From Candidatus Multivoradales bacterium (GTDB lineage Bacteria > Acidobacteriota > Thermoanaerobaculia > Multivoradales > JAHEKO01): a stretch of DNA of 64,000 bases. The stretch is taken from assembly GCA_965248055.1 (NCBI GenBank), contig CBDFIJ010000004.1, positions 608,001-672,000 on the forward strand, given 5' to 3'. The position numbers and the translations under genes are program-made. The notes below the pieces were generated by a model that ran no database searches, was not told where the DNA came from, and saw only the letters and a program-made list of their open reading frames with translations. Below, piece by piece: positions 35,747-53,062 of this stretch (within the stretch, counting starts at the first letter, position 1; the number at the start of each line of letters is the position of its first letter).

Positions 35747-36998
35747 TGTCCTAGATCAGTACCTTTGAGACAGTCGGCGGGAGCACGACCCCTGGGTCGA
35801 GCTTTAGAAGGTACCTTGCCGGGGGTTTTCTTTTCAAGCTCTTGTGCGGCCTGTAGGTGTTGTAGAGGTCCTGGAATCTCTGGATGTAAGGTCTCAAAGC
35901 CGAGACAGTATCGGGTAGCTCATACATTTCATAAAACTCTCCTCTCCAGGTTTCCTGCATTCGTTCGACGGTGCCGTTGAGCTTCGGACTCTTTGGCGGC
36001 AGCACATAGAGGGTGATGCCTCTATCTCGGCAGGCTTTCTCAAATTCATCCATAAATTCACTACCACCGTCCACTTGGATCGAGGTGATGTCAAACGGAC
36101 ACTCGGCAATGACTTTGTCTAGAAAGCGTGCTGCACAGCGAGAAGTGGCACGTTGATAGATCTCTCCCACTGTCCACCGGCTGACCGGACAGGAGGCTGA
36201 AAAGTGTTTGAGCCACTTGCCTGGAGCAGGGACCAGATGCAGCGTGTCGATCTGCAGTCGCTCGCCAGGGCGCGTTGGTCGGGGACACCATTTCGGCAGT
36301 CGCTGAGCGTGGAGCCGGCGCATACGCCGGGAGTTTTTGTACTTCTGGCGCCGGTAGCGTACCCGGTGGATTACCCCTCGATCCATCAATTTGCGCAAGA
36401 TACGCCCGACAGTGGCTTCTGATACCTCAAAGCCCTCGCCCTGGATCAGCGGCGCTAGGGTTTCCTTGCCCCAGGCAGGAAAGTCTCGACGGAGACTTTC
36501 GACTCTCTGTACCAATTCAGGTGACCAGTCAGCCTTACGCACCCGCTTGGGTCGGCTTGATATCGGTTCTAGATGTCGGGGGCCACGCTCAAGGCGTTTG
36601 CGCCAGCGGTAAAGGGTAGCTCGACTCTTGCCCAAGATCTGAGCTGCTTCTTCACCCGAGATCCCCTTGTCGCGTAGTTGCTCGAAGCTCGCAACCAAGC
36701 GCAGCCGATCACGAGCCTGAGAGCTTAAGACAACGATGTCTTCACGGTAGTACTTGTAGAAACTTGGATCGAGTGCGACGATTTGCATCTGGGGGCCTCC
36801 CTTCGTTTTGGGTTATTCGATAGACCCGAAGGATCTTGGCCCCCTTTTTACTTGTCAAGGCTGTGGATGATGATGGGCTGGTGCAAAGCCAGCTACGCTT
36901 GCCTTCCCACAGCCCTTGGAAATCTCTCACGAGATTCCCACATCCCCCACAGCCTCGGCGACTAACGGCGCTGTCTCACAGGTGTTTGATCTAGGTCA
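35747..36998 (-). mobile_element. IS481-family element
   Basis: Imperfect inverted ends TGTCCTAGATCAGTACCTTTGAGACAG and CTGTCTCACAGGTGTTTGATCTAGGTCA; no target duplication seen. Confidence 0.82.
35751..36788 (-). CDS. IS481-type DDE transposase
   Basis: HTH SRATLYRWRKR; QID, QVDGGSEF, NGTVER, YNTYRPH. Confidence 0.93.
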   Translation of the reverse strand: MQIVALDPSFYKYYREDIVVLSSQARDRLRLVASFEQLRDKGISGEEAAQILGKSRATLYRWRKRLERGPRHLEPISSRPKRVRKADWSPELVQRVESLRRDFPAWGKETLAPLIQGEGFEVSEATVGRILRKLMDRGVIHRVRYRRQKYKNSRRMRRLHAQRLPKWCPRPTRPGERLQIDTLHLVPAPGKWLKHFSASCPVSRWTVGEIYQRATSRCAARFLDKVIAECPFDITSIQVDGGSEFMDEFEKACRDRGITLYVLPPKSPKLNGTVERMQETWRGEFYEMYELPDTVSALRPYIQRFQDLYNTYRPHKSLKRKPPARYLLKLDPGVVLPPTVSKVLI

Positions 36999-37183: not shown

Positions 37184-37267
37184 TGGTGCCGGAGGCGGGA
37201 CTCGAACCCGCAAGCCTTGCGGCGGAGGATTTTAAGTCCTCTGCGTATGCCATTCCGCCACTCCGGC
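37184..37267 (-). tRNA. tRNA-Leu(TAA)
   Basis: GCCGGAG...GAGGA-CT-TAA-AA-TCCTC, long variable arm, GGTTCGAGTCC, CCA end. Confidence 0.97.
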
Positions 37268-38474: not shown

Positions 38475-38559
38475 GCCGGAGTGGCGGAATTGGTATACGC
38501 AGAGGACTTAAAATCCTCCGCCTTCGGGATTGCGGGTTCGAGTCCCGCCTCCGGCACCA
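38475..38559 (+). tRNA. tRNA-Leu(TAA), second copy
   Basis: GCCGGAGTGGCGGAATTGGTATACGCAGAGGACTTAAAATCCTC...GGTTCGAGTCCCGCCTCCGGCACCA. Confidence 0.97.
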
Positions 38560-38719: not shown

Positions 38720-39409
38720 ATGGATTTGATTTCTCAGGAGATACTTCGGTCCGCGACGCCGTTCAGCGCTTTGCCTGATGCTGATCGTCAACATCTTGCG
38801 GCGGTTGCCGAGGTTAAGACATTCCGGGCAGGCGACCTCGTTCTTCGCGAAGGCGAACCGTCGCACTATTTCTACACCATCGTCTCAGGGCGGGTGAAGG
38901 TGTTCAAAACAACTCCATCGGGAAAGGACATCATCTGGGGGATCTTCGGCTCGGGAGATCCCGTGGGCAGCGTGGCGGCGTTTAAGGAAACTCCCTATCC
39001 AGCAACCGCGGCAGCGCTCGAAGAGACTGTTTGCATCCAAATCTCCCGATCCGATCTCTACTCTTTGATGGATGATCACCCTTCGATTGCCAGGGGGCTT
39101 CTCCTTGGTCTGACCCAGCGCCTAGTTGAACTGGTCAACCGCGTGGGAGAACTGACTGGTGCCCGCGTTGAGCCTCGATTGGCGAGGCTCTTTCTTCGGC
39201 TCGCCCACGAAATGGGGCACCACGACCGTGCCGGTATCTTCATCCCGATGGCGCTCAGTCGGCAGGAACTCTCCGACATGACCGGCACTACGATCGAGAC
39301 CTGTATTCGTGTGATGAGTAAATGGCAGAAGGACGACACCGTGCATACCGAAAAAGATGGCTTTGTCGTTTTGGACCGGGCGGTCCTGACAGCCCTCGCC
39401 AACCACTGA
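38720..39409 (+). CDS. Crp/Fnr-family regulator (Dnr/NnrR-like; no FNR Cys cluster)
   Basis: cNMP fold IVSGRVKV, YPATAAALEE; HTH LSRQELSDMTGTTIETCIR. Confidence 0.93.
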   Translation: MDLISQEILRSATPFSALPDADRQHLAAVAEVKTFRAGDLVLREGEPSHYFYTIVSGRVKVFKTTPSGKDIIWGIFGSGDPVGSVAAFKETPYPATAAALEETVCIQISRSDLYSLMDDHPSIARGLLLGLTQRLVELVNRVGELTGARVEPRLARLFLRLAHEMGHHDRAGIFIPMALSRQELSDMTGTTIETCIRVMSKWQKDDTVHTEKDGFVVLDRAVLTALANH

Positions 39410-39481: not shown

Positions 39482-39886
39482 TTGGTGGAGTCCTCCAGTC
39501 TGAACGTTAGGATTGCCGAATTGGCCAACGCCAATCGGTTGCTGATTTCCCAAGCGCAACAGACCGACTGCCAATGCCCTTCTGCGGTATTGAATCTGGG
39601 CGCCTCGATTACCTCCCTCTCAACTCTGGCTTCTTGTCTTTACGAACACAATCGCTTTCTCGACGAAGCGGTCCTCGATGAGCTATTACTTGAGCGTCGG
39701 AGTTTGGCCGATGCCCTCGACCTGCTGAAAACGTTGAGTGAGGCCAACTCAGAATCGCACGACATTGAGCCTCTCGCCAGCGCGCTGGTGGGGCGCATCG
39801 AAGAGTTCCTCGAGCGCGAAGATCGCGCTTTCTACCAACCGCTACTCCGTTCCGCGAGTAGCGATAGCAGGAAGGCGCATAGGTAG
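39482..39886 (+). CDS. Small helical protein, degenerate hemerythrin-like
   Basis: C-terminal FLEREDRAFY resembles hemerythrin HxxxED.xF; start uncertain. Confidence 0.45.
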   Translation: MVESSSLNVRIAELANANRLLISQAQQTDCQCPSAVLNLGASITSLSTLASCLYEHNRFLDEAVLDELLLERRSLADALDLLKTLSEANSESHDIEPLASALVGRIEEFLEREDRAFYQPLLRSASSDSRKAHR

Positions 39887-39947: not shown

Positions 39948-41174
39948 ATGAATCTGAAACGGCGAAGCCAACCAGCCCGCAAATTGATCTGGTTCCTCAG
40001 CATCAGCCCTGTTGCTGCCTTGCTCTTTCTTGGGTCGTGCTCCGACGGGGGGGGCAACAGCAGCTCGAACCTGGCAGCAGCGAAAGCGGATAAGCCAGTT
40101 CTTTCGTGGACCCACCTAAACGTTCCTGAACCACCCAACTTTACGCCAGAGCTAGCAAGTAGGGGGGAGCAGGTGTTCAAAGACAACTGTGCGAGCTGTC
40201 ATGGAGAGAGCGGCGCAGCTGACGGCACCTGTGCTGCCTTTTTATCCCCCCAACCAAGGAATTTCACCACCGGTATCTACCGCTTTAAGACCACACCTGG
40301 GGCGGAAATGCCAACCGACCAAGATCTCTTCCGTACCGTCTCGCTGGGAGTCCACAGTACCGGTATGCCCCCTTGGCAGTACTTGCTTTCTGAGGAGGAC
40401 CGCTGGGCGGTGGTGGCTCACTTGAAGACTTTCTCGGACAAGTTCGAGAGCCGAGGGGCAGGGACCCCAGTGGATCTAGGAGACGAGCCGGCAACCATAA
40501 GCGAAGAGATGGTTACCCGTGGCCGAGAGGCGTACGTTAAGGGCCAATGCGGGAAATGCCACGGCGAAGGAGGCTATGGAGACGGTCCGTCTTCGCTCAC
40601 CCTTGAAGATGCCTTCGGCAACGCAATTCCACCGAGGAATTATCATAAAGCGGCAGATTTCAAGCGTGGGCACACCCTGCGCGACATCGCGCTGACGATT
40701 AACACCGGAAATAACGGCACACCAATGCCAGCCTTCAACGAGGCCTTCAGCGAACAAGAGGTCTGGGATCTGGCTGCGTACATTCACAGCCTTGCAGAGT
40801 TACGCTTTGCCGGCGGCGGCACTCCCGCCGCTGCGGTTATGGGAACGGAGCTTGGTGAGCCCGACGTAGTCATTGAGCTGACCGAGCGGCATTGGCAGTT
40901 CATCCCCAACGAAATTCGTGTCCGTCAGGGACAGGTTGTGCGAGTCGACTTTCAGCCTACCGACAACGGCTTGGGCGTCGGCCACGGTTTTGCCATCGAC
41001 GGCTACGATAAAGCCGTTTTCATGAATGGTGTGTTGGTTCAGCGACCGAAGTCGGTTTCTTTCCTGGCGGCGAAAGCGGGAACCTTCACCTTCTACTGCG
41101 CCACCCAGTGCAGCACCGGTCCGCTTCACCCAAAGATGAATGGCAAACTCATCGTCGAGCCGGCCGAGAGCTAA
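39948..41174 (+). CDS. Lipoprotein dihaem cytochrome c fused to a CuA-like cupredoxin
   Basis: AGGAGG RBS; lipobox-like LGSC; CASCH and CGKCH with PRNF/MP motifs; GHGF...YCATQCSTGPLHPKM. Confidence 0.88.
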   Translation: MNLKRRSQPARKLIWFLSISPVAALLFLGSCSDGGGNSSSNLAAAKADKPVLSWTHLNVPEPPNFTPELASRGEQVFKDNCASCHGESGAADGTCAAFLSPQPRNFTTGIYRFKTTPGAEMPTDQDLFRTVSLGVHSTGMPPWQYLLSEEDRWAVVAHLKTFSDKFESRGAGTPVDLGDEPATISEEMVTRGREAYVKGQCGKCHGEGGYGDGPSSLTLEDAFGNAIPPRNYHKAADFKRGHTLRDIALTINTGNNGTPMPAFNEAFSEQEVWDLAAYIHSLAELRFAGGGTPAAAVMGTELGEPDVVIELTERHWQFIPNEIRVRQGQVVRVDFQPTDNGLGVGHGFAIDGYDKAVFMNGVLVQRPKSVSFLAAKAGTFTFYCATQCSTGPLHPKMNGKLIVEPAES

Positions 41175-41184
41175 GGAGATCTAC

Positions 41185-42975
41185 ATGAGCAAGCGAAGAA
41201 ACCAGTTTTGGATCCCGACCATAGTCCTTGTCGCGAGTCTGGTGTTGGTTGCCACCTGCCGTGCACCCAGCAGGACAGCACAAGGAGAAAGCAGCACAGC
41301 CAATCTCAGCAGCCGGACCTATGTTCCGGTCGGTCAATGGGATAAATACTACGCTTTCCTGTCTGGAGGCCAAAGTGGAGCCGTCTACGTCTACGGTTTG
41401 CCTTCGGGCAGGTACATTCGCAGTATTCCGGTCTACGAGCCTCGCGCTGGCTACGGTTACGCCAACGTCCCGGGAACGGAAAGTTACGAGAGACTGGCTG
41501 CGTCAGGGCCAATGTGGGGCGATACCCACCATCCAATCCTCTCCGAAAAGGGCGGGGACTACGACGGAAAGTCTCTGTGGATCAATGACAAAGCCAATAG
41601 CCGCATCGCCAGAGTCGATCTGTCGACCTTCGAGACCAAGGCGATAGCCAAAATCCCAAACCTGCAGGCGACCCACGGAATTGCGGTCATCTCCCCCGAC
41701 ACCAGCTATATCGTTGCCAACGGCGAGTTCCGTGCAGAGGTCCCGCCTGGACGCATTGACGTCGATAACTACGGCTCCATCATGGCCTTTCTTGACCCGA
41801 CGACTCTGGAGCCCCAGTTTGAGGTTCTTATGCCCGGCAATTGCGATATCAACGACTCGAGCAAGGATGGGCGCTGGGCCTTCACGACAATCTACAATCT
41901 TGAGGGGGCCGTGACCGTTGAGGGGATGATTCAGCGCGAAGAGGATGCCATCGGTGCGGTCGACATCCACGCCGCTGAGGCTGCGATTGAACGAGGTGAG
42001 TTCAAAGTTGTCAACGGCGTCAAGGTGATTGACCCCGAGGCAACCACCGAGAAGGTTGTCTATGTGATCCCGGTGCCAAAGAACCCTCACGGGTGCGACG
42101 TAACGCCGGATGGCAAGTACGTCATGGGTACCGGGAAGCTGTCACCGACGGTCACAGTAATCGATATCAGCAAGATCGACCAGGTCGAGAATCCCCGCGA
42201 TGCGATTGCTGGTCAACCCGACGTCGGCCTCGGGCCGCTGCACACGACTTTTGATGGTCGCGGCAACGCCTACACTTCGCTCTTTGTCGACTCACAGATC
42301 GTCAAATGGAACATCGAAAAGGCTATCGCCGGAGACCCTACCTACATTGTCGATCGGGTGGACGTACACTATAACGTTGGCCATACCCAGGCCACGCTTG
42401 CCGAGACAATGCACCCTACCGGGGAATACCTGGTGTCGCTCAACAAACTCTCAAAGGATCAGTACCTGCCTGTTGGCCCAACGATGCCGGAGGCGCAGGA
42501 ACTGATCGATATTTCGGGCGAGAAGATGACACTGCTGTCGTCATTCCCAGCCGAGCCCGAGCCGCACGACGCAGTATTCATGTTGGCTGAAGACCTGATC
42601 CCCAACGTTATCCAGACAGAAGAGCTCACCGCAGATGCAGTGCCAGAAGGGGGCAGTCGTGTAGAAAGGGTTGGACCCAACGAAGTCCACGTTTACATGA
42701 CTGCGATCCGCTCCAAGTACGGTCTTAACGATTTCACCGTTAAGCAAGGAGACAAGGTTACGATCACTCTCACCAACATCGAGACGATTCGCGACATGAG
42801 CCACGGTTTCGCAATCGAAGACTATGGCGTCAATCTGGCTTTGGACCCGGGACAGACGCGTGAAGTGACCTTCGTCGCCGAACATCCGGGTACCCACTGG
42901 TACTACTGCACCTGGTTCTGTTCGGCGCTTCATCTTGAAATGAGAGGGAGGATGCTGGTCGAAGAGAATGGGTAG
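41185..42975 (+). CDS. nosZ: Nitrous oxide reductase
   Basis: CuZ His motifs DTHH, THG, PHG, GPLH, VGH, EPH; CuA HGF...CTWFCSALHLEM; AAGGAG RBS. Confidence 0.96.
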   Translation: MSKRRNQFWIPTIVLVASLVLVATCRAPSRTAQGESSTANLSSRTYVPVGQWDKYYAFLSGGQSGAVYVYGLPSGRYIRSIPVYEPRAGYGYANVPGTESYERLAASGPMWGDTHHPILSEKGGDYDGKSLWINDKANSRIARVDLSTFETKAIAKIPNLQATHGIAVISPDTSYIVANGEFRAEVPPGRIDVDNYGSIMAFLDPTTLEPQFEVLMPGNCDINDSSKDGRWAFTTIYNLEGAVTVEGMIQREEDAIGAVDIHAAEAAIERGEFKVVNGVKVIDPEATTEKVVYVIPVPKNPHGCDVTPDGKYVMGTGKLSPTVTVIDISKIDQVENPRDAIAGQPDVGLGPLHTTFDGRGNAYTSLFVDSQIVKWNIEKAIAGDPTYIVDRVDVHYNVGHTQATLAETMHPTGEYLVSLNKLSKDQYLPVGPTMPEAQELIDISGEKMTLLSSFPAEPEPHDAVFMLAEDLIPNVIQTEELTADAVPEGGSRVERVGPNEVHVYMTAIRSKYGLNDFTVKQGDKVTITLTNIETIRDMSHGFAIEDYGVNLALDPGQTREVTFVAEHPGTHWYYCTWFCSALHLEMRGRMLVEENG

Positions 42976-43624
42976 ACCTGTGTTCGTCACGGTGGCGATG
43001 CTACTCGTCGCCACCTTGGCGCTGCCCCTGTGGTCGACTCGGATGGAGGCGCCACAGTACAAAGGTGACGAAGCGCTAGAGGTCGAGGTTTACGCTGGCC
43101 GCGTTCAGGGAGACATCGACGAGATCGAACTGCTAAACCAATACGTCGGAGTCCACCTGCCTCTTGGCACTCCAGAACTTGTCGCTGCGCCCTGGGTCTT
43201 GGGCTCCTTCTTGTTGATCGCCCTGATTGCTGTGGCGCTCCCCCTCACGCAACGCCGACGTGTTGCGGTTGTTCTTAGCATCGTGATGCTCGGAGTGATA
43301 CTGGGCGGCGCTACTGTATTGCAGTACCGTCTATATCAAATGGGGCACCAACGCAGTCCAACAATCATGAATGGTGTTGATGACTTTACTCCTCCCATTT
43401 TGGGCTCGAAAAAGATCGCCAACTTCACCGTCTACATGAATCTCGGAATCGGTGCCTGGGCCTATCTAGCTGCGCTACTCCTGCTCGCTTGGTCTCTATG
43501 GCGGTGGTCGCCCAAAGGCGACCCCGAACTCTGGCGGAGAAATCGGTCAGCGAACAGCAATCGAATTCAAAGGTGTCTCAACCGATTTCCTCGAAACTTC
43601 CCGTCACCCGATAATCAGGCATGA
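42968..43624 (+). CDS. NosB-like membrane protein (clade II nos clusters)
   Basis: LPLWSTRMEAPQY, LNQYVG, FTPPILGSKKIANF. Confidence 0.82.
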   Translation: MGRPVFVTVAMLLVATLALPLWSTRMEAPQYKGDEALEVEVYAGRVQGDIDEIELLNQYVGVHLPLGTPELVAAPWVLGSFLLIALIAVALPLTQRRRVAVVLSIVMLGVILGGATVLQYRLYQMGHQRSPTIMNGVDDFTPPILGSKKIANFTVYMNLGIGAWAYLAALLLLAWSLWRWSPKGDPELWRRNRSANSNRIQRCLNRFPRNFPSPDNQA

Positions 43625-45072
43625 TCACCAAAACGAGTCCAGGTCAGATCCATCCACCGGCTGGCCACCCGGGATGGGGCATTGCGGCAGCTCTAGCGAG
43701 TGCGGTAATGCTCCTGGCCCTGCTGGTCGGTGGAATGGTGCTGATTCCCCGTTACCGCGCAGCTAACCCAGCGAGTGACCTTCAACTGAGCGATGCTGAT
43801 CGGGTGTCAATCGACGATCTCTACCTAGACCTGACGATCGTCACTCCAAAGTTCCTCGCCAGCCGGAACCTTGAACGCTTCTTGGGTGGACACGAGGCGG
43901 ATACCGTTCTGCCTTTGATTGTTGGGGTAAACGCTCACAAAGGCTCCATCGAACACATGCATCACCTAGACGGCGATGTGCATCTCCTTGACACCGATGG
44001 AGCGCGCTACCCGGCCCTCACCGAACCGATCGTGCTGACCGAACATCACAACGCCTACATGCTGCTATTCCCGCCACGGGATAACCACGGGAGTCCCTTC
44101 TTGCACGCCGAGGAGGGGAGTATCGTCGTTGAAGTTACTGGGATGGGGGCGGTTCCTGTTCGTAGATTCGAGTGGCAACTACCGCTCGACGAAAGTACCG
44201 AATCTGGGGTGCTAGGCGTTCTGATGCTGTTGGTAGCGCTCACCGGAGCTCTGCTGGTTGTGCTTTCGCCGTGTGCTCTCGAGCTAACTCTTTACTACAC
44301 AGCGATTATCTCGGCGACGATTGATGAAAGTGAAAAAGAAGTCGTGGCGAAGGGAGGCCTCGCTGCCGCTGACGGAGTTCGCCGACGAGTCCTGATCAAC
44401 CTTGGGAGTTTCGTCGCTGGCTTTACCCTCCTCTACTCCGCTGCCGGAGCGACAGTAGGCCTGATTGGGCAGGGAGTGCGCCAACCGCTTGGCGAGTACG
44501 GCGTTCTGATCCAAATTGCGGGAGGTGGCCTGATTCTCTTCTTTGCTCTTAAAGTCCTTGGACTCAATCAGTGGATTGGTCGCCGATTGGGATCCTCAGA
44601 TCTCCGAATCCCCGTACTCGGTCGGTGGTACCCCGCTCTAACGGGCGGGCTAAGACGCGCTTTGACTCGGCTCCGCTTTCGCGGTGAGAGCCGCGCAACA
44701 GAGCACGGGACGATGCGAGCCACTGACTCGTTTCTGGTTGGCATGGGGCTGTCATCAGCTTGCCTTGGCTGTATGGGGGGCGCGGTCCTCTACCCTCTTC
44801 TGGTTTACGCTGGAATCACCTCATGGTACTCAGGGCTCATTACCTTGGCCCTTTTCTCGCTGGCTATTGCTTTGCCAATGGTCACAATTGCCCTCGGGTT
44901 CTCGCGAATTCGACTCACGCTTGGCACTAGACCTGGAGTTACTCACACGCTGAAGTACGCCAGCGGTGTTCTGCTTGCCGGAATAGGCCTTCTGATCATT
45001 ACCGGCCGCGAACGGCTGATCACCGACGTGGCGTTCAAGTTCCTCGCCAATGTCACCCAGTGGTTCGCCTGA
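43621..45072 (+). CDS. His-rich soluble domain fused to a CcdA/DsbD-like membrane domain
   Basis: AHKGSIEHMHH and EHHNAY; LSPC, FVAGF, CLGCMGG in TM region. Confidence 0.75.
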   Translation: MITKTSPGQIHPPAGHPGWGIAAALASAVMLLALLVGGMVLIPRYRAANPASDLQLSDADRVSIDDLYLDLTIVTPKFLASRNLERFLGGHEADTVLPLIVGVNAHKGSIEHMHHLDGDVHLLDTDGARYPALTEPIVLTEHHNAYMLLFPPRDNHGSPFLHAEEGSIVVEVTGMGAVPVRRFEWQLPLDESTESGVLGVLMLLVALTGALLVVLSPCALELTLYYTAIISATIDESEKEVVAKGGLAAADGVRRRVLINLGSFVAGFTLLYSAAGATVGLIGQGVRQPLGEYGVLIQIAGGGLILFFALKVLGLNQWIGRRLGSSDLRIPVLGRWYPALTGGLRRALTRLRFRGESRATEHGTMRATDSFLVGMGLSSACLGCMGGAVLYPLLVYAGITSWYSGLITLALFSLAIALPMVTIALGFSRIRLTLGTRPGVTHTLKYASGVLLAGIGLLIITGRERLITDVAFKFLANVTQWFA

Positions 45073-46298
45073 TCCCTGTTCTCAGCTGTCTTGCGACCTT
45101 CGCTATTCCTGCGCAGGCCGCTCAGATTGTTGTCGATCCCGGTGAACTGAAAGCCGCCCTTCTAGATGCGGCTCCAGGCGACACCCTCAGGCTGCTGCCG
45201 GGGGTTCATTCCGGCCCAATCACCATCGACCTTCCGCTCCGACTGGAAGGCGCACCAGGGGCGGTTCTCGAAGGACCAGGAGTCGGTACCGTACTGACTC
45301 TGACAGCCGATGGGATCACTATCACGGGCCTCACGGTGCGCGGCTCCGGTAGCGATCTCTCACGGGACGAAGCGGTGATTCTGATAAAGCAAGCACAGGG
45401 CATAACGATTGAAAACTGCCTTGTGGAGGCGAAAGCTTTCGGTATCTATCTGGAGTCCGGAAGGGGGCACCGCATTCGGCGCAATCAGGTACTAGGGGAC
45501 ACGTCATTGCAGGTGGCTCGAAGAGGCAACGGCATTCACCTGTGGCAGACCGAAGACAACGAGATTCTAGATAATCGCCTAGTCGACGTGCGAGACGGAA
45601 TCTACTTGTCGTTCGCCCACGACAATGTGATCCGCGGAAACCGGGGACAAGGACTGCGCTACGGTATTCACTACATGTATTCGGAACGAAATACCCTGTC
45701 TGAGAACCATTTCAGCAACGGTATCGGTGGAATCGCTCTGATGTTTTCGATGCGCAATCGAATTGAGAACAACGACACTTTCAACAACCGTGACTTCGGC
45801 ATCTTGTGCCAGCAGATAGAGAACTCGCAGATTGAGGGTAACCGCGCGTTCGGAAACGGCCGTGGTTTCTACCTTGAGAACTCCGCCATCAATCGGTTCG
45901 TGGGCAACCGGTTGAAAGCCAATGGCGTAGGTGTCTATCTCACCGCCGGCTCAGAGCAGAACGTGTTTACCCACAATCACTTTGTCGGTAACTTGGTTCA
46001 GGTGTTCGAAGACCATCCAGGTATCAACACCTTTTTCGATCAACAGCAGGGTAACTTCTGGGGCGACTACGCTGGTTTTGACTGGAACGGCGACGGAATC
46101 GGTGAAACCCCATACCGCTTGAACACCGCGGCTTCCGCGTTGATGGCGCGAAAGCCGATAGCTCGTTGGTTTTGGATGAGCCCGGCACTGGCCCTTCTGG
46201 AATGGTGGGATACCCGCATAGCAAAAGCCAAAGTCCAGAGCTTTGATCCATTCCCGCTGATTGGCTCTAACGTCGAAGCACAGCAGGTGTTGCAGTGA
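45060..46298 (+). CDS. nosD: NosD maturation protein
   Basis: RRGNGIHLW, RDGIY, LRYGIHYMYS, GNFWGDYAGFDWNGDGIGETPY. Confidence 0.95.
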   Translation: MVRLIPVLSCLATFAIPAQAAQIVVDPGELKAALLDAAPGDTLRLLPGVHSGPITIDLPLRLEGAPGAVLEGPGVGTVLTLTADGITITGLTVRGSGSDLSRDEAVILIKQAQGITIENCLVEAKAFGIYLESGRGHRIRRNQVLGDTSLQVARRGNGIHLWQTEDNEILDNRLVDVRDGIYLSFAHDNVIRGNRGQGLRYGIHYMYSERNTLSENHFSNGIGGIALMFSMRNRIENNDTFNNRDFGILCQQIENSQIEGNRAFGNGRGFYLENSAINRFVGNRLKANGVGVYLTAGSEQNVFTHNHFVGNLVQVFEDHPGINTFFDQQQGNFWGDYAGFDWNGDGIGETPYRLNTAASALMARKPIARWFWMSPALALLEWWDTRIAKAKVQSFDPFPLIGSNVEAQQVLQ

Positions 46299-47029
46299 TG
46301 ACAGGTGTCCAATTCGTCAAAGCCGGACGTCGCTTTGGTCGCCACCTGGCACTTCACAACCTGGATCTCGACTGCCCACGAGGGGTCTTGACTTGCCTTG
46401 TGGGTCCCAATGGCGCTGGCAAATCAACCGCGTTAGCACTGGCAGCAGGCCTTCTGGCACCAACGACGGGGGCAGTTGTCAACGGTGGCCGCCCGGTGCG
46501 CCTATCCGGGCCACTAGAGGACACAGGCTATCTCCCTCAGCGAAGTGCTTTTCACCCTTCGTTCACCGTCAGCGAAGTCCTAGATTTCACAGTCGCAGCT
46601 CGCGGCAACAGCAACCTTGTGAGGTGCCAAGCACTGACCGTCACCGGACTGGATTCAGTACTTGATCGTTCTGTCGGCGAGCTCTCGGGCGGTTGGATCC
46701 GACGCCTCGGCCTGCTTTCGGCATTGCTGGGGTCACCCGCCGTGCTACTCCTCGACGAACCCTTCGTCGGGCTCGACCCTGAAACCCACGATCGCTTGCT
46801 GGCACACCTCGCGTCGCGTCTACAGTCCGGTGCAACCATCCTCATGGCCAGCCACGAATTCGAAGCTGCAGACCCATTGCATCCTAAAGTGGCAGTCCTC
46901 GAAGAGGGTCGTCTGCTCCTCACCGCTCAAGTGTCGGGCGACACGCCGAATGGCAACTCCTCCAGCCGCTCTTTCTACCGTCGAGCTCTACAGAAGGGTT
47001 CGATTCCCACCCAACAAGAGAAGGAATGA
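46295..47029 (+). CDS. nosF: NosF ABC ATPase
   Basis: GPNGAGKS, GYLPQ, LSGG, LLDEP; follows nosD. Confidence 0.88.
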   Translation: MMTGVQFVKAGRRFGRHLALHNLDLDCPRGVLTCLVGPNGAGKSTALALAAGLLAPTTGAVVNGGRPVRLSGPLEDTGYLPQRSAFHPSFTVSEVLDFTVAARGNSNLVRCQALTVTGLDSVLDRSVGELSGGWIRRLGLLSALLGSPAVLLLDEPFVGLDPETHDRLLAHLASRLQSGATILMASHEFEAADPLHPKVAVLEEGRLLLTAQVSGDTPNGNSSSRSFYRRALQKGSIPTQQEKE

Positions 47030-47964
47030 TGATCCCTCTGCGCGCGCTGATGCTGGTAGCCCTGAGAGAGGTGCGGCTATTGCGCCGCAGCCGGGCAACA
47101 CTCGGCGCCGTCGCCTTGCTCGCTTCCGTGGCTTGGATGGCGGCAGTCCTGCAACCACTGCGCCGCGGTTCTTTGGGAGTCGCTTCGTTTACTGAGATGC
47201 AGCCTCTCCAGATTGCCCTGGGTGCAGTGATCTTGCCATTGCTTGCTCTGTTGGCAGGAGCTGAACTGTTTGCTGGCGAACTGGCGGAAGGGTCCCTGGT
47301 ACCGCTCTTGACTCTGCCGATTTCACGCCGAGCTTGCTTTGTCGGCAAGTGCCTCGGCCGTGGCATGACTCTTGGCATTCTCTATATCGTCGCGTTTGCG
47401 AGCGTCGGCGTCACCGTAGCAGTGGCACGGGGTGGGGCTGGTTGGAGGGACTGGATCGTGGTCACCGGCGCCGGCCTGCTGCTAGCGTTTTCGACCGGCT
47501 GCGTCGGTACGGCTCTCGGCGCCACAGGCAAAGGTCGTGTGCGGGCGTTTGGCGCGGCACTATTTACCTGGGTCATTCTTGTCTTCGCTCTCGACGCCTT
47601 ACTACTCACCTTAGTGATTGCGCTCGCTCCGCCTCCGCCAGATGGCATTGGTACGCATGGACATGGAGAAATCGCCGCTCCCCAAGGAACAATGCCAAGC
47701 CACGACCCACACGCCCGCGAGTCAGAGCCAGAGTCACCGAGAGCTGGAGGGCTATCCAAGCGACTTATGGCCCTGAGCCCTGTCAGTCTCTTTCGTTTGA
47801 CCTGCCTGGCGGCAAGCAAGAGCTTGAAGCCTCGGCTCACCTTGGCACTGCCAGGCGACAGCCCGGCCGAACTCTGGACAACGCTATCCATCGGGTGGTT
47901 GATTTGGATAATGGCTCCGCTTGCTTTCGGGTTACGTCGATTCCTTCGCGCCAGCCTGAGTTAA
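47026..47964 (+). CDS. nosY: NosY ABC permease
   Basis: LPLLALL...GELAEGSL, PISR...GK, ALSPVSLFR; follows nosF. Confidence 0.85.
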   Translation: MMIPLRALMLVALREVRLLRRSRATLGAVALLASVAWMAAVLQPLRRGSLGVASFTEMQPLQIALGAVILPLLALLAGAELFAGELAEGSLVPLLTLPISRRACFVGKCLGRGMTLGILYIVAFASVGVTVAVARGGAGWRDWIVVTGAGLLLAFSTGCVGTALGATGKGRVRAFGAALFTWVILVFALDALLLTLVIALAPPPPDGIGTHGHGEIAAPQGTMPSHDPHARESEPESPRAGGLSKRLMALSPVSLFRLTCLAASKSLKPRLTLALPGDSPAELWTTLSIGWLIWIMAPLAFGLRRFLRASLS

Positions 47965-48420: not shown

Positions 48421-48939
48421 ATGACTATGTGGGTTGGAGCGATTCGCCTGACCGTGGAAACTGCCGATCAACCCTACGCTGGAACCGATAGCCTGATCCG
48501 AGCATCGTTTCGACGTAACGGCTCTGAAATGCGGCTACTCAACTTGGACTACCCCACTCTGGACGACCACGAGCGCGGAGCTATTCGCAACTACGATTAC
48601 ATCGGGGCTACCAAGTTGCCGCGCAGAAACGACAAAACCCCAGAGTTGCCTCCAGGCATCGGCCAGATTCCCATGCCCTACCCTGGATACGGCATCGAGT
48701 TCTCAGATGGCATGAACGGCCACCTCTCCATCCGGCTAAAGATCCATGGTGATGACATGTGGATCAAAGACAAGGTGGATTTATACGTTCAGCAGATCCG
48801 CCAAGTTGCCACGAGCTTCGACACCCTTGCCTGGATTCGCGATAGCCACTGGACCTACGTCGCGAGTTGGACCCAGGACGTTGCGCTAAGCACTGACTCT
48901 GGTGAAGGGGTTACTGTCTGGACTCTGGTGTTGAATTAG
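48421..48939 (+). CDS. Hypothetical protein, PLAT/LH2-like
   Basis: AAGGAG RBS; TADQPYAGTDS, DDHERG, DDMW. Confidence 0.55.
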   Translation: MTMWVGAIRLTVETADQPYAGTDSLIRASFRRNGSEMRLLNLDYPTLDDHERGAIRNYDYIGATKLPRRNDKTPELPPGIGQIPMPYPGYGIEFSDGMNGHLSIRLKIHGDDMWIKDKVDLYVQQIRQVATSFDTLAWIRDSHWTYVASWTQDVALSTDSGEGVTVWTLVLN

Positions 48940-49432: not shown

Positions 49433-52400
49433 CTATCCGGCATTCACGATACCGATCCACTCCCGCATCTCGCCGAGGCTGCAACCGAACTTAGTGTGCC
49501 CGGCCCCCAGCTCTTGGGCTTCGATGATCTGCTCGCAAGAACAGCCACCGGTATCCTCGATGGTGAAACTAGCGTTAGGACCCTTGGGTGAGTGGCCACC
49601 GTTGTCGAACTGGTTGCCACCCGGAGAGACCGTGTCGAAGATTCCATCCCCGTCCACTAGAGCAAAGCGATTGGTGCCCAGATGGTCGGTCGGAACGCCT
49701 TCTGGAATGACGGTATCGGGACACAAATCAAATGCGTCCAACACCCCATCACCGTCGGAGTCGACCGACTCAATCACCGTTAGCGTAGCGCTTGCCGGAT
49801 CGGCCGCTACCGCCGGCCCCTGGCGCAGCGCACTGGTGGTGTTGGGGTAATCGCCCGACGTAGCCCCAGCGGGAACTTGTACCTCCACGCTGAAGGTACA
49901 CGAACCGCCAGGCAGCAGGTTACCGTCGGCAAGACTGATCAACGACGTCCCGGAGAGCGCCGAGCCCAGTCCGCAAACATCCGCAGTCGGCAGGCCGAGA
50001 GCAGACGCCCCAGACAGCATCGCGTCAAGGTCGTCGGTGAAAGCGAGACCGGTCGAACTGGTGGTGGTGCTCAGGTTCTCGATGGTAAACGTCAGAACCA
50101 CTATGTCGCCCGGTTCGGCGGTGCCGTCGAACGACTTACTGAACGAAACCAGGGAAATCTGCAACTCATCAGAAGCTGGGTCACCACTGACAGAACCACT
50201 GTCGGTTGAACCACTCACGCCGCTGGTTGTATTGATGAAGCCAGTCCCCACGCCGACCTCGTTCGGCACCTGCAAGCTGACATCGAAAACGCACGAACTA
50301 CTGGGTGCCAAGTTGCCACCGATGAAGCTCAAGACGCCAGCACCGGAGATTTGCGAGCCGAGACCACAGATGTCGTTTAGCGTGCCGCTAGTCGAAACCA
50401 AACCACTCAGTACGGCATCGAGGTCATCAGTAAACGCAATGCTATTGACGGTGTCGGTGGTGCTGGAGTTGTTGATGCTAAACCGCAGTGTAGCCGTACC
50501 ACCCGGAGGTACCGGATCGTCGATGAACTCCTTGCTAAGAGTCAAGAAGTTAGAAGATACAACCAGTTGGTCGATCGCGCCGTCGAACACCACGTTGGGC
50601 GTGCCGTCCATGGTGGCGGTAACTACATTGACCGAATTGACGTAAATGTCAGAAGCGGCCCCTGCTGGAACCTGCAAAGTGACGTCAAAAGTACAACTAG
50701 CACCAGACACTAGGTTGCCAGCTTGAAACGTCAAGTTATTGGTACCACTGATCTGCGACCCGGTGCCACAGATGTCGTTGGCGGGTAGCCCAACCGCAAC
50801 CAGACCACTTATGACTGCGTTCAGATTGTCGCTGAACACGATGGCGGTAGCATCTTCACCGACACTGTCGTTGGTCAGAGTGAACCGCAGGTTCACGGTG
50901 TCACCGGCAACCACTGGGTCGTCGGTGAACTCCTTAGTAAGCATCAAACCAGCAACCCGAAGGTCGTCACTGGCGCTGTTACCACTGGTGGCAACACCTC
51001 CGACGGTGGCAACCACGTTCGAAGTAGTGTTCGGGTAGTTGCCAGACGGTGTACCCGCGGGAACAACCAAGTCGACCGAGAATTGACAGCTAAAGATGGG
51101 GTTGCCCGCACCTGGATCCAGGAACCCATCCATTAACGTCAAGACACCGGAACTAAAGTCGAGCGAAGAACCGGCGCCACAAGGATCGGTTGGCAATACG
51201 CCAGCCGGTGCTAGCCCAGCCGCTACTGCCTCGAGATTGTCGGTGAAGGTGATCCCGTCAGCCGCATGGCTGACATCGAGATCGATCACGCCGTCGCCAT
51301 CAAGGTCATAGGTGACCGTGAACTGCAACGTTACCGTTCCGCCCGCTGCGACCGGGTCGTCGATGAACTCTTTGATCACCACCGGAGGAGCGACTACGTC
51401 TAACTCATCTGAGGCTGGATCGCCCGCCACCGCTTCGCCATTGATCACTCCGGAAATGTCGCTAGTGGTATTTAGGTAGGTCCCTGCGGGAGCCAACCCG
51501 TCGAGATCGAGGGTCAGGCTGAAGGTACAGCTAGCTCCCGCGGCCAACTCAGCTCCAGTTACCACCAGCTTCGCTGGGGTGGTGCTGGTGGACACGATCA
51601 AAGGCGTGTAGCTAGCGACCGAACCGGCACCGCAAAATCCGTTGGCCGGAACCACCGAAGCGGTGGGCAGCACATCGTCAAAGACATCCTCAAAGGTGAT
51701 GTCGGTCGCGGTCTCCGTGGAATGTGGGTTGGTAATCGTGAATTCGAGCTCAACGGTTTCACCACTGCCCACAGGGTTGTCGAGGAAAGTCTTGGTCAAA
51801 GTCAGAGTTGGCGCGATAAACAACAAGTCGGTTGCGGCCGCACCCACAGTTGGGTTGCCGTCCACGGTCGCTGAGATTGCGCTGGTGGTATTGGTGTAAG
51901 TTCCTGGAGCTGCACCTGCTGGAACCGCAAGCGTGGCGCTGAATACACAGGTGCCGCCGGCGGGCAATTCTCCAGCAGTGAGACTCACAACCCCAGTGCC
52001 ACTGAATTGAGAGCCAGCACCGCAAATACCGTTGACGGGCAAGCCGGTGGCTTCAAGGCCAAATAATGCGGCCCCGAGGTCGTCGGTAAAAGCAATGTCG
52101 GTAGCAGTCGAGCCACGACTCAGGTTACGCACTTCGAACTCGAGCGTCACCGTTCCACCAGGAGCAGTGGGATCGTCGGTAAAGGTTTTGGTCAAAGCAA
52201 TCAGGTTTGAGGCCACTTGGACCTGATCCGTAGCGAATCCGCTATTTAGGATGGGTTGGGATCCTGGGGCAAGCAGTGAAGTTAGATCACCGCTGACGTT
52301 GTTGAGAACGCCAGATGCGTTGGCGGTCACGTCGACGACGACGGTACAGCTCGCCCCGGCAGCCACAGTAGCGTCCCCTTGAAATGCGGGACTGTAAGTG

Positions 52401-53062
52401 ATGACCGAAGTCCCGGCGGCCGCCGTGAGCACCCCACCACCACAAGTCGACGACGCGTTAGCCGGGTTGGCAACCGTCATGTTGGGTGGCAAGTTGTCGG
52501 TGAAACTTAAGCTGACCGCACCGCCCGCATTGGCAGCGTTATCGATCAGAAAGGTGAGGGTACTGCGGGCACCAAAAGCAACAACATTGGGCGAAAAAGA
52601 TTTACTAAAACCCGGCAGGTCTGAGGCGACAGTCAGATCAGCACTCGCTGTCCCGCTGTTACCTGCATCCGAGGTCAAATCCCCGGAAACGTTGCTGTGG
52701 GTTCCTGGCGTCGCAGAGGTTACGTTGAGCGAAACGCTACACGATCCGCCAGCGCCAACCTCGCCTCCGGTTAAAGAAATCGTCCCGCCCCCCGCTGGGG
52801 TAGAAACCGTTCCGCCACAAGAAGACAAAACGCTAGACGGATCGGCAATCGTCATCCCGGCTGGGAAAGTGTCGGAAAAAGCCAAAGACCTCACCCCAAC
52901 TCCTGAACCGTTGGCAATCGAGAACTCCAACGAAGAAGTGCTTCCAATCCCGATGGTTGACGGAGTAAACGCCTTGGAAAACGTGGGTGGTTGAGCGAAA
53001 GCAATCGACGCAGTCGCGACGATCAGTAACGCAGTGATTAGGAAAAACTTTTTGTTCGCCAT
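49433..53062 (-). CDS. Large secreted protein with 8 DUF11-like Ig-type repeats and a C-terminal TSP3-like Ca-binding motif
   Basis: Signal peptide; eight KxF...F(T/S/E)D...CG...C...N repeats; DSDGDGVLDAFDLCPDT. Confidence 0.88.
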   Translation of the reverse strand: MANKKFFLITALLIVATASIAFAQPPTFSKAFTPSTIGIGSTSSLEFSIANGSGVGVRSLAFSDTFPAGMTIADPSSVLSSCGGTVSTPAGGGTISLTGGEVGAGGSCSVSLNVTSATPGTHSNVSGDLTSDAGNSGTASADLTVASDLPGFSKSFSPNVVAFGARSTLTFLIDNAANAGGAVSLSFTDNLPPNMTVANPANASSTCGGGVLTAAAGTSVITYSPAFQGDATVAAGASCTVVVDVTANASGVLNNVSGDLTSLLAPGSQPILNSGFATDQVQVASNLIALTKTFTDDPTAPGGTVTLEFEVRNLSRGSTATDIAFTDDLGAALFGLEATGLPVNGICGAGSQFSGTGVVSLTAGELPAGGTCVFSATLAVPAGAAPGTYTNTTSAISATVDGNPTVGAAATDLLFIAPTLTLTKTFLDNPVGSGETVELEFTITNPHSTETATDITFEDVFDDVLPTASVVPANGFCGAGSVASYTPLIVSTSTTPAKLVVTGAELAAGASCTFSLTLDLDGLAPAGTYLNTTSDISGVINGEAVAGDPASDELDVVAPPVVIKEFIDDPVAAGGTVTLQFTVTYDLDGDGVIDLDVSHAADGITFTDNLEAVAAGLAPAGVLPTDPCGAGSSLDFSSGVLTLMDGFLDPGAGNPIFSCQFSVDLVVPAGTPSGNYPNTTSNVVATVGGVATSGNSASDDLRVAGLMLTKEFTDDPVVAGDTVNLRFTLTNDSVGEDATAIVFSDNLNAVISGLVAVGLPANDICGTGSQISGTNNLTFQAGNLVSGASCTFDVTLQVPAGAASDIYVNSVNVVTATMDGTPNVVFDGAIDQLVVSSNFLTLSKEFIDDPVPPGGTATLRFSINNSSTTDTVNSIAFTDDLDAVLSGLVSTSGTLNDICGLGSQISGAGVLSFIGGNLAPSSSCVFDVSLQVPNEVGVGTGFINTTSGVSGSTDSGSVSGDPASDELQISLVSFSKSFDGTAEPGDIVVLTFTIENLSTTTSSTGLAFTDDLDAMLSGASALGLPTADVCGLGSALSGTSLISLADGNLLPGGSCTFSVEVQVPAGATSGDYPNTTSALRQGPAVAADPASATLTVIESVDSDGDGVLDAFDLCPDTVIPEGVPTDHLGTNRFALVDGDGIFDTVSPGGNQFDNGGHSPKGPNASFTIEDTGGCSCEQIIEAQELGAGHTKFGCSLGEMREWIGIVNAG

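Follow-up and report, generated by a model that had tools for sequence, protein, structure and literature searches.

The window analysed here, that is, the whole stretch of 64,000 nucleotides, contains a nos cluster of eight genes, all of them read from the forward strand:

38720..39409, forward strand: transcription regulator of the Crp/Fnr family that probably controls the cluster (Pfam cNMP_binding 2.8e-24, HTH_Crp_2 5e-15)
39949..41174, forward strand: dihaem cytochrome c with a C-terminal CuA-like cupredoxin domain and its own lipobox leader, FLGSC (Pfam, motifs)
41185..42975, forward strand: nosZ, predicted nitrous oxide reductase of lineage X, its leader of the Sec/lipoprotein type (motifs, HMMs, tree, leader)
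42968..43624, forward strand: nosB-like membrane protein of 218 aa (tblastn homology, position after nosZ)
43621..45072, forward strand: CcdA/DsbD-like membrane protein specific to the lineage, modelled with a periplasmic beta-sandwich at the N-terminus that carries conserved His (protein atlas, homologues)
45060..46298, forward strand: nosD (TIGR04247 384 bits, cut-off 300; Pfam NosD 9e-51)
46295..47029, forward strand: nosF, ABC ATPase (Pfam ABC_tran 1.2e-22; position; homologous to nosF in other loci)
47026..47964, forward strand: nosY, ABC-2 permease (Pfam ABC2_membrane_2 1e-25; 49% identical to its counterpart in locus L010)

The nosZ frame (41185-42975, +) is translated without a stop into 596 aa, and its ATG at 41185 is preceded, 6 nt away, by an AAGGAG ribosome-binding site; a longer frame starting at 41140 runs into the end of the upstream gene and is improbable as the true start. 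The motifs quoted in the first-pass annotation are all present in the translation, both those called clade I-like (LQATHG, PKNPHGC, GPLHTTFDGRGNAY, EPHD, FTVKQGD, WYYCTWFC) and those called clade II-like (YAFLSGGQSGAVYVYGLPSGR, VHVYMTAIRS, FCSALH), as are KRRNQF and VATC in the leader, and the two labels fit the sequences of P. stutzeri and of one clade I and four clade II representatives. Alignment to the NosZ of Pseudomonas stutzeri (3sbp/6rkz; E 1e-151) places H115, H116 and H164 of the query on chain residues H129, H130 and H178, and H302, H353, H400 and H461 on the histidines of PKNPHGC, GPLHTT, YxxGH and EPHD; these seven P. stutzeri histidines we take, following the P. stutzeri structure papers, to be the ligands of CuZ. 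The CuA ligands are H540, C575, C579, H583 and M586, in the pattern H...CxxxCxxxHxxM. Both sets of ligand columns are invariant among 19 diverse NosZ, which bears out the earlier statement that all seven CuZ histidines and CuA are present. The propeller repeats score above their own cut-offs (PF18764, 113.5 bits; PF18793, 37.3 bits), and Pfam Cupredoxin_1 and COX2 match at residues 507-591, the C-terminal cupredoxin domain.

What kind of leader does this protein carry? The motif and hydropathy profile displays the features of the Sec type: a short n-region, a strongly hydrophobic h-region of 16 residues and no conserved RR. The KRRNQFW of the query does not fit RRxFL, the type to which all 22 clade I leaders examined belong, and its nearest relative reads KRTSKF at this site; an RRx-hydrophobic, Tat-like motif occurs in only 2 of 96 relatives, and RR is not conserved and is absent in the closest ones. 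Hydropathy of the h-region amounts to 2.59 +/- 0.28 in lineage X as against 1.77 +/- 0.23 in the 22 Tat leaders (maximum 2.19), every one of which is exceeded by the query with 2.90. A cysteine directly follows the strongly hydrophobic h-region in all 96 relatives, and in 64 of them the h-region ends in a strict lipobox, [LVI][ASTVI][GAS]C; the query, whose motif is VATC, carries Thr at -1 and falls outside the classical [GAS] rule. As judged from its sequence, the leader is of the Sec type with a conserved lipobox cysteine, in keeping with the earlier remarks that a clear Tat motif was missing and that the protein might be a lipoprotein.

The order of genes in the cluster, comprising the dihaem cytochrome c-cupredoxin gene, nosZ, nosB, the CcdA-like gene and nosDFY, with neither nosL nor nosR, is conserved in lineage X. 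The nosB-like protein matches no Pfam or NCBIfam model, and its assignment comes from tblastn, by which a nosB homologue is found just 3' of nosZ in three of four X loci (the contig of the fourth ends), 3/3 haloarchaeal loci, 30/32 clade II loci and 0/14 proteobacterial-type clade I loci. No NosL, ApbE or FMN_bind domain was detected in the 12 large ORFs between 33.6 and 48.9 kb, all eight cluster genes included. NosL (PF05573) is absent from the whole genome, which is 97.7% complete; no protein combines FMN_bind with Fer4_5, the nosR-type pairing, and the ApbE genes are located elsewhere than in the nos cluster. The description of a cluster with nosB and a cytochrome c but without nosR, nosX and nosL is thereby upheld. 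The Crp/Fnr-family protein, which has homologues upstream and in the same orientation in the X loci L009 (69%) and L010 (50%), probably regulates the cluster; no FNR box (TTGATN4ATCAA, up to one mismatch) was found within the whole window. Downstream of nosY, a 172-aa ORF (48421-48939) matches no significant Pfam or NCBIfam family.

The gene directly preceding nosZ has an AGGAGG 5' of its ATG at 39949, and its product matches Pfam Cytochrome_CBB3 (1.8e-24, two stretches) and Cytochrom_C (1.4e-21). Two CxxCH motifs in its translation are accompanied by an H...CxxxC...H..M pattern, and its C-terminal part is a match to the final ~95 positions of the NosZ models (TIGR04246, 4.3e-11), with 29% identity to residues 494-593 of NosZ itself. 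Homologues occupy the position directly upstream of nosZ in all four X loci. On the grounds of gene order and conserved residues, we propose that this protein is the electron donor to NosZ.

The CcdA-like protein (483 aa) has no Pfam match even at E <= 5 and no significant NCBIfam family. Its assignment rests on a feature-based match in a protein atlas (score 0.96) to a cluster with DsbD_TM in 86% of its members, and on the names of its 104 homologues, which some sources call CcdA and two of which have a precomputed PF02683. The gene is restricted to X loci among the 80 loci compared, and a full-text literature search returned no report of a CcdA-like nos gene. The Cys of SPCALE, a CxxC, H106 and H142-H143 are invariant in the family; six homologues are 664-730 aa long, and the one examined among them (P0370) is a fusion with NosB. 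These conserved Cys and His residues, together with the occasional fusion, tie the CcdA-like protein to NosB. The AlphaFold model is poor overall (pLDDT 59.5), with values of about 70-86 in the beta-sandwich at residues 52-191, for which the structural matches are middling (DUF4426, Z 8.5; CrdA, Z 7.1; P19/Tp34/HftA, Z 6.1-6.3). That the modelled domain may be a metal-binding sandwich is a weak lead and not an assignment.

Where does this NosZ belong? The NCBIfam models TIGR04244 (Tat/clade I) and TIGR04246 (Sec/clade II) have a curated cut-off of 625 bits each, and the query stays below both, with 604.3 and 537.8 bits. The same is true of all 13 lineage members scored, the query and 12 relatives, which reach 571-621 and 501-561 bits, respectively; clade I and clade II representatives attain 723-1107 and 787-944 bits on their own models. 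The lineage is represented by over 100 sequence clusters with at least 57% identity, and its members are Acidobacteriota, Myxococcota, Verrucomicrobiota and Binataceae MAGs. Lineage-X NosZ are named inconsistently by those annotation pipelines that know the two clades alone; the four names in use are 'TAT-dependent NosZ', 'cupredoxin domain-containing protein', 'hypothetical protein' and 'Nitrous-oxide reductase precursor'.

In the main maximum-likelihood tree (62 rows, 611 columns, LG+C20+F+G4), lineage X is recovered at 98/90, and X with P0124 at 100/96. Clade I, which unites haloarchaea and Tat-type bacteria (16 rows), and crown clade II (26 rows) are supported at 100/99 each and both exclude X, and the split {I+X}|{II} has 100/99. 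The NosD tree is congruent ({X+I} 98, X 91, I 98), with clade II NosD spread over several other branches. Rooting with clade III (P0177, P0151) gives (I+X) an SH-aLRT of 82 with 64 rows and a polytomy with 33 rows. AU tests in IQ-TREE (33 rows, clade III outgroup) rank (I,X) best at p 0.70-0.75, and neither (II,X), at p 0.39-0.43, nor (I,II), at p 0.14-0.26, is rejected. The sister clade of X depends on the root, and a 'basal clade II' position is tenable. Five columns separate clade I, haloarchaea included, from clade II; X shows the clade I state at four of them and the clade II state at none. The first-pass suggestion of a deep-branching or intermediate lineage agrees with the scores below both cut-offs, with the position outside clades I and II and with the NosD tree, and the NosZ tree, which includes clade I, clade II and haloarchaeal sequences, does not nest the query within any clade I or clade II subclade. 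A full-text literature search did not single out the lineage; papers defining clade II subclades were outside its reach, and a name may exist.

We consider it probable, as a joint judgement, that the product of the gene is a functional Z-type nitrous oxide reductase built from a seven-bladed CuZ propeller and a CuA cupredoxin domain, that X is a large uncultured lineage apart from both crown clade I and crown clade II, and that the enzyme is exported and matured by the mechanism proposed below. On sequence grounds the gene is an intact NosZ, a variant of a known enzyme, and its lineage lies between the two textbook clades.

One competing explanation would dispense with a separate lineage: X might be an early-branching subclade of plain clade II (atypical, Sec-dependent) NosZ with a more conservative sequence, for which the existing scheme suffices. 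With clade II (Bacillota, Opitutaceae, Gemmatimonadota; TIGR04246) the query shares Sec-type export (in that clade frequently with a lipobox), a nosB gene immediately 3' of nosZ, motifs near the N-terminus of the F.SGG.SG.V.V.G.PSGR type, IRS and FCSALH, and the (II,X) topology survives the AU test. The match extends to primers: Jones-type clade II primers show 0 and 2 mismatches to nosZ, none within the 3' five bases, and clade I sets at least 6. The earlier warning that standard clade primers could miss the gene holds for the clade I sets and fails for the clade II ones, and since the latter match, surveys based on clade II amplicons would probably pick up the gene and assign it to clade II. 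A Sec-type leader and nosB directly downstream, the combination seen here, serve as working criteria of clade II in PMC11409646, and Flieder et al. 2021 (PMC8528874) term marine Thermoanaerobaculia NosZ 'type-II'. Membership in clade II nevertheless appears unlikely to us. The score on the clade II model is 87 bits below the cut-off and lower than the clade I score in 13/13 members, crown clade II excludes X, NosD joins X to clade I at 98, and the separating columns never show the clade II state. The query also differs from clade II in having EPHD for EPHY and WYYCTWFC for F.FYCT.FC, and its cluster adds the lineage-specific CcdA-like gene and the cytochrome c-CuA-like gene.

Still less credible is the opposite explanation, by which X would be clade I NosZ that secondarily lost the twin-arginine leader and nosR and gained nosB by cluster shuffling. 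The resemblance to clade I (P. stutzeri 3sbp, Paracoccus denitrificans; TIGR04244) is considerable: the two-domain fold is the same, the CuZ and CuA ligand sets are identical, and PKNPHGC, GPLHTTFDGRGNAY, EPHD, FTVKQGD and WYYCxWFC are nearly so. The Tat model is the best-scoring HMM, NCBI names some relatives 'TAT-dependent nitrous-oxide reductase', the query happens to carry KRRNQF, and clade I is the sister of X in the best NosZ and NosD trees. The query differs, however, in its Sec-like h-region with a lipobox Cys in place of a twin-arginine leader, in a score of 604 bits against 625, in having nosB and no nosR, nosX or nosL, in a DxHH without the third His and in FCSALH for FCHALH; clade I excludes X at 100/99, and the near absence of Tat-like motifs among relatives (2/96, with RR missing in the closest) argues against this explanation. 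Haloarchaeal clade I (3/3 loci) and clade II both have nosB, and ancestral retention explains the nosB of X more simply than gain does.

Haloarchaeal NosZ (Haloferax, Halorubrum), which are basal in clade I, have the highest identity to X (mean 46%; query 46-48%) and share with it nosB after nosZ, a lipobox Cys after the leader, FCSALH and DxHH-type motifs. They differ in their clear RRxFM Tat motifs, in passing the TIGR04244 cut-off (P0122, 723 bits) and in having neither the CcdA-like gene nor a cytochrome c-cupredoxin gene upstream. Clade III, the lactonase-type L-NosZ, can be aligned over the C-terminal half, cupredoxin domain included, but the query scores 221.8 bits on its model (NF052460) against a cut-off of 700 and has a full Z-type propeller and adjoining nosDFY; clade III serves as an outgroup only.

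That clade I-like motifs occur together with clade II-like ones probably reflects an intermediate, slowly evolving position rather than recombination. In sliding windows, identity to haloarchaeal NosZ is highest or tied in 11 of 14 and trails that to another group by 0.01-0.03 in the other three. That the mosaic arose from recombination between clades I and II, or marks a decaying, non-functional copy, is hardly believable: the N-terminal third is slightly closer to clade II and the middle to proteobacterial clade I, but no window puts either far ahead of the haloarchaea, over 100 sequence clusters, with identities as low as 57%, have the same pattern, NosD, a separate gene, places in the same way, none of the metal ligands is lost and the maturation operon is complete. 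A recombinant origin of nosZ was rejected for want of any sharp breakpoint in the sliding windows.

How would an enzyme of lineage X be exported and assembled? The observed leader features suggest that the unfolded pre-protein would leave via Sec and would then be cleaved and probably lipidated at the conserved C25 of VATC, which would tether NosZ to a membrane facing the periplasm. The copper centres would be built outside the cytoplasm by NosDFY, the genes of which are present and the role of which in copper-centre assembly is established. Without NosL, copper supply and thiol chemistry may involve NosB and the CcdA-like protein, roles suggested by gene order and conserved residues. The co-transcribed dihaem cytochrome c-CuA-like lipoprotein, rather than NosR or NosGH, would pass electrons to CuA.

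Lineage X unites clade I-like motifs of the catalytic domain with Sec/lipoprotein export and NosB, and, taken with the haloarchaeal clusters, it points to NosB and membrane tethering as ancestral traits and to Tat and NosR as derived ones. Going beyond the placement itself, we tentatively hypothesize that X ranks as a fourth major clade of NosZ (the third to have the canonical fold), that its sister group is the whole of Tat-dependent NosZ, and that it might have kept the ancestral combination of Sec lipoprotein export and NosB. If so, both the change from Sec to Tat and the acquisition of NosR would fall on the clade I stem, the copper and thiol role of NosL would have been replaced by the NosB-coupled CcdA-like membrane protein with a metal-binding periplasmic domain, and the electron supply of NosR by a dedicated dihaem c-CuA lipoprotein donor. 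The absence of NosL and the conserved, sometimes NosB-fused CcdA-like gene offer a handle on the function of NosB, and the same gene set offers one on copper acquisition by Sec-exported NosZ.

To our knowledge, no biological sink for the greenhouse gas N2O is known other than NosZ. Surveys assign the clades of NosZ by HMM cut-offs, leader type, the presence of nosB or nosR, and primers. With scores below both clade cut-offs and inconsistent names, the lineage will be miscounted or missed in genome-based inventories, and its genes blur the ecological contrasts drawn between the clades. Around the cluster, GC content is even (0.54-0.60 over 28-53 kb) and thus lends no compositional support to a recent transfer; the patchy distribution of the lineage and the flanking tRNA and IS genes are suggestive of transfer.

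The NosZ encoded at 41185-42975 (+) belongs to a group, here called lineage X, that is distinct, abundant and uncultured, intermediate between the textbook clades and equipped with accessory genes of its own. On translation, nosZ is an unbroken frame of 596 codons, with an AAGGAG site 6 nt upstream of its ATG that overlaps the stop codon of the preceding gene, and Pfam assigns two NosZ propeller repeats and a C-terminal cupredoxin to the product. Among solved structures, Pseudomonas stutzeri NosZ is the best match (E about 1e-151). H115, H116, H164, H302, H353, H400 and H461 align to the CuZ ligands of that enzyme (H129, H130 and H178 of the latter were counted directly off the alignment), H540, C575, C579, H583 and M586 align to the CuA ligands, and all these columns are invariant among 19 diverse aligned NosZ. 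Every motif quoted in the first-pass annotation, with its CuZ histidine set and CuA, is found in the translation, which confirms that observation. The predicted product is a real, intact NosZ, and its chemistry would be expected to be ordinary.

All genes of the nos cluster lie on the + strand, their ends overlapping or closely spaced.

Genes of the nos cluster and reading frames between or beside them (window coordinates)
38720-39409, +, Crp/Fnr regulator
39482-39886, +, 134-aa ORF between the Crp/Fnr and cytochrome genes, no family hit
39949-41174, +, fusion of a dihaem cytochrome c and a CuA-like cupredoxin, carrying a separate lipobox leader
41185-42975, +, nosZ
42968-43624, +, 218-aa membrane protein (NosB, by position and homology)
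43621-45072, +, 483-aa membrane protein (CcdA-like)
3' of the 483-aa gene, +, nosD, nosF and nosY
48421-48939, +, 172-aa ORF just after nosY, no family hit

Trees were built from named NosZ references obtained in a scan of species-representative genomes (including Paracoccus denitrificans, three haloarchaea, Oxalobacteraceae, Bacillaceae, Opitutaceae, Gemmatimonadota and Chloroflexota) and from 50%-identity representatives of an exhaustive HMMER search. Before tree building 27 of the 80 nosZ loci compared were left out as fragments, frameshifted or redundant; another 9 long-branch representatives and 13 redundant loci were removed for the careful tree (62 rows, 611 columns, LG+C20+F+G4), which is concordant with the quick tree of 84 rows. 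In the 62-row tree the query falls within lineage X (17 rows, 98/90; 100/96 with the long-branch public representative P0124). As the suggestion of a deep-branching or intermediate lineage implied, X stands apart from clade I, made up of four haloarchaeal and 12 Tat-type bacterial sequences (100/99), and from crown clade II (26 rows, 100/99), and the split of clade I plus X from clade II also receives 100/99.

Since the three groups are monophyletic and joined at one node, the choice of root decides which of the other two is sister to X. When two sequences of the lactonase-type clade III serve as outgroup (P0177 scores 914 bits on NF052460), a 64-row tree places the root between clade II and clade I plus X (SH-aLRT 82), and a 33-row rooted tree gives a polytomy. 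The AU test rejects none of the three arrangements, with p of 0.70-0.75 for X with clade I, 0.39-0.43 for X with clade II and 0.14-0.26 for clades I and II together. In a quick tree of the separately encoded NosD (42 rows, LG+G4), X receives 91 and X with haloarchaeal and proteobacterial-type sequences 98, the NosD of clade II being split among several branches on the opposite side, in agreement with the NosZ trees on the placement of X. Taken together, the NosZ and NosD trees set X apart as a lineage of its own, and its most probable position is that of nearest outgroup to the Tat-type enzymes.

The query stays under the cut-off of both clade models of NCBIfam (604.3 bits on the Tat-type TIGR04244 and 537.8 on the Sec-type TIGR04246, each against 625) and that of the clade III model (221.8 against 700). 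This is not a quirk of one sequence: the 13 members tested, query included, score 571-621 and 501-561, respectively, the Tat model leading in every one. On their own models a proteobacterial-type clade I representative reaches 1107 bits, a haloarchaeal-type one 723 and four clade II representatives 787-944. More than 100 clusters of the public protein collection are 57-92% identical to the query, and their organism-named members are all metagenome-assembled genomes of Acidobacteriota, Ca. Acidoferrales, Binataceae, Myxococcota/Polyangia and Verrucomicrobiota. As expected of sequences straddling the 625-bit cut-offs, these members are labelled inconsistently at NCBI, as ‘TAT-dependent nitrous-oxide reductase’, ‘cupredoxin domain-containing protein’, ‘hypothetical protein’ or ‘Nitrous-oxide reductase precursor’. 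Other long-branch NosZ-like representatives are also under both clade cut-offs, for example P0124 (430/402), P0128 (374/362) and P0127 (497/601), and also P0138; P0124, P0127/P0138 and P0128 branch off close to where X, clade I or clade II begins. More unnamed deep NosZ lineages may exist.

What could be the source of the mixed clade I and clade II motifs? On average X is 46% identical to the NosZ of haloarchaea, against 41.5% for proteobacterial-type clade I and 40.7% for clade II, the latter two being 35% identical to each other. Five columns (at least 80% consensus) tell clade I, with the haloarchaea counted in, from clade II, and X agrees with clade I in 4 of them and with neither clade in 1; at 21 columns splitting only proteobacterial-type clade I from clade II it has the clade II state in 11, that of clade I in 5 and another in 5, much like the haloarchaea (9, 3 and 9). 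Recombination was rejected as the source: haloarchaeal identity is top or tied in 11 of 14 sliding windows and only 0.01-0.03 behind in the other three, with no breakpoint along the query. The mosaic is, by these comparisons, the look of a short, centrally placed branch.

The gene context described earlier, with nosB and a cytochrome c and without nosR, nosX or nosL, is borne out. In a tblastn survey of the 80 loci, counting the 53 present in the 84-row tree, a homologue of the 218-aa protein lies just 3' of nosZ in 3/4 X loci (in the fourth the contig ends), 3/3 haloarchaeal and 30/32 clade II loci, and in none of 14 proteobacterial-type clade I loci; position and homology thus identify the protein as NosB. 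All four X loci have the cytochrome c-cupredoxin gene before nosZ, as does, more distantly, one clade I locus of Nitrospirota. NosL was not found in the query genome (97.7% complete), the sole FMN_bind and Fer4_5 hits there, which a NosR-type protein would combine, are in separate proteins far from the cluster, and two ApbE genes lie elsewhere.

Among the 80 loci the 483-aa protein is confined to X (L010, L011 and L009, the last with a truncated copy at its end). It has 104 homologues (36-100% identity), several labelled CcdA by source; by an uncounted, by-eye comparison of two tables, many of them have a longest contig equal in length to that given for a lineage X NosZ. Six are 664-730 aa long (P0364, P0370, P0372, P0381, P0386 and P0408); the one examined, P0370, opens with a NosB domain 48% identical to window 42968-43624 (E 1e-57), which makes it a natural NosB-CcdA-like fusion. 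Pfam gives no hit on the 483-aa protein; the link of the family to DsbD_TM comes from a protein-atlas search (score 0.96). Invariant positions include an SPC motif, a CxxC and, within the periplasmic domain, three histidines. This domain is a predicted beta-sandwich whose fold matches are all weak, periplasmic proteins that bind copper or iron being among them.

The leader, as noted at first pass, has no clear Tat motif. The RR of KRRNQF is not conserved, an 89%-identical relative reading KRTSKF, and RRx-hydrophobic-hydrophobic occurs in 2 of the 96 usable N-termini among public representatives P0001-P0121 (n=121), against an RRxFL-type motif in 22/22 clade I Tat leaders. Taking the most hydrophobic stretch of 12 residues in each leader, mean hydropathy is 2.59 +/- 0.28 in X (query 2.90) and 1.77 +/- 0.23 (maximum 2.19) in those 22. 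TatC is encoded in the genome, so the Tat machinery exists, yet the query leader is Sec-like. The proposed lipoprotein fares well by conservation, a Cys following the hydrophobic core directly in 96/96 leaders (strict lipobox 64, relaxed 83); in the VATC of the query, position -1 is a Thr, which is unusual, and lipidation of this protein is likely, not certain. A lipobox-like L(A/T)(G/A)C also directly follows the twin-arginine leader in many Tat-type clade I NosZ of haloarchaea, Betaproteobacteria and Myxococcota (loci L012-L014, L017, L018, L021-L024, L026, L030-L032, L039, L044, L047 and L068). Membrane tethering by an N-terminal Cys therefore looks common across NosZ clades and not a clade II trait.

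The expectation that standard primers could miss such genes holds only in part and is the exception to a first reading that was otherwise largely right. Each of the usual clade I primer sets differs from the gene at 6-7 positions, but nosZ-II-F matches perfectly at 42229 and nosZ-II-R with two internal mismatches at 42908, predicting a product of about 698 bp. Clade II amplicon surveys probably include lineage X; pipelines based on HMM cut-offs are the ones at risk of missing it.

A NosZ match at E <= 1e-50 turns up in 41 of 400 further Acidobacteriota species genomes, and just 2 of these belong to X (77% and 75% identity); at this threshold there is none in the same-genus genome, three same-family genomes (the former included) or the same-order genomes listed. 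An rve-type transposase gene (35751-36788, -) adjoins the cluster, and next to that gene, just upstream of the cluster, two inverted tRNA-Leu(taa) genes (37184-37267, -; 38475-38559, +), near-identical outside the variable arm, enclose about 1.2 kb with no convincing gene. The tRNA pair, the transposase and the failure to find NosZ in the same-genus genome hint at an inserted or rearranged segment, though the region is uniform in GC, and gain of the cluster by transfer is plausible. Elsewhere in the genome a 662-aa frame carries a NirS-like cytochrome cd1 domain (PF02239, 376 bits; G000:C4:2569439-2570584, locus L095) about 4 kb from a cupredoxin-domain hit (L005), and no NirK exceeds its cut-off; judging from these genes, the host may reduce nitrite as well as N2O.

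Mise et al. (2026, PMC13122619) report nosZII in 481 of the 491 Acidobacteriota genomes with a nosZ, and Flieder et al. (2021, PMC8528874) term the NosZ of marine Thermoanaerobaculia ‘type-II’. Archaea and Chloroflexota are noted to break, in places, the pairing of Tat with nosR and of Sec with nosB (PMC11409646), and one classification follows the two TIGR models (PMC11828985). The full texts searched give just a two- or three-clade scheme and single out neither lineage X nor a CcdA-like nos gene; lineage X is provisionally undescribed. What makes it of interest is its bearing on classification and on how export and maturation evolved, together with the NosB-CcdA-like module.

Beyond the cluster, a large surface protein built of repeats seems to be encoded by a 1209-aa ORF (49433-53062, -), which has a signal peptide, about eight tandem repeats of roughly 120 aa in which FTDDL...GLP...CG.GS...G.L..G.SC.F motifs recur, and a C-terminus rich in Cys.
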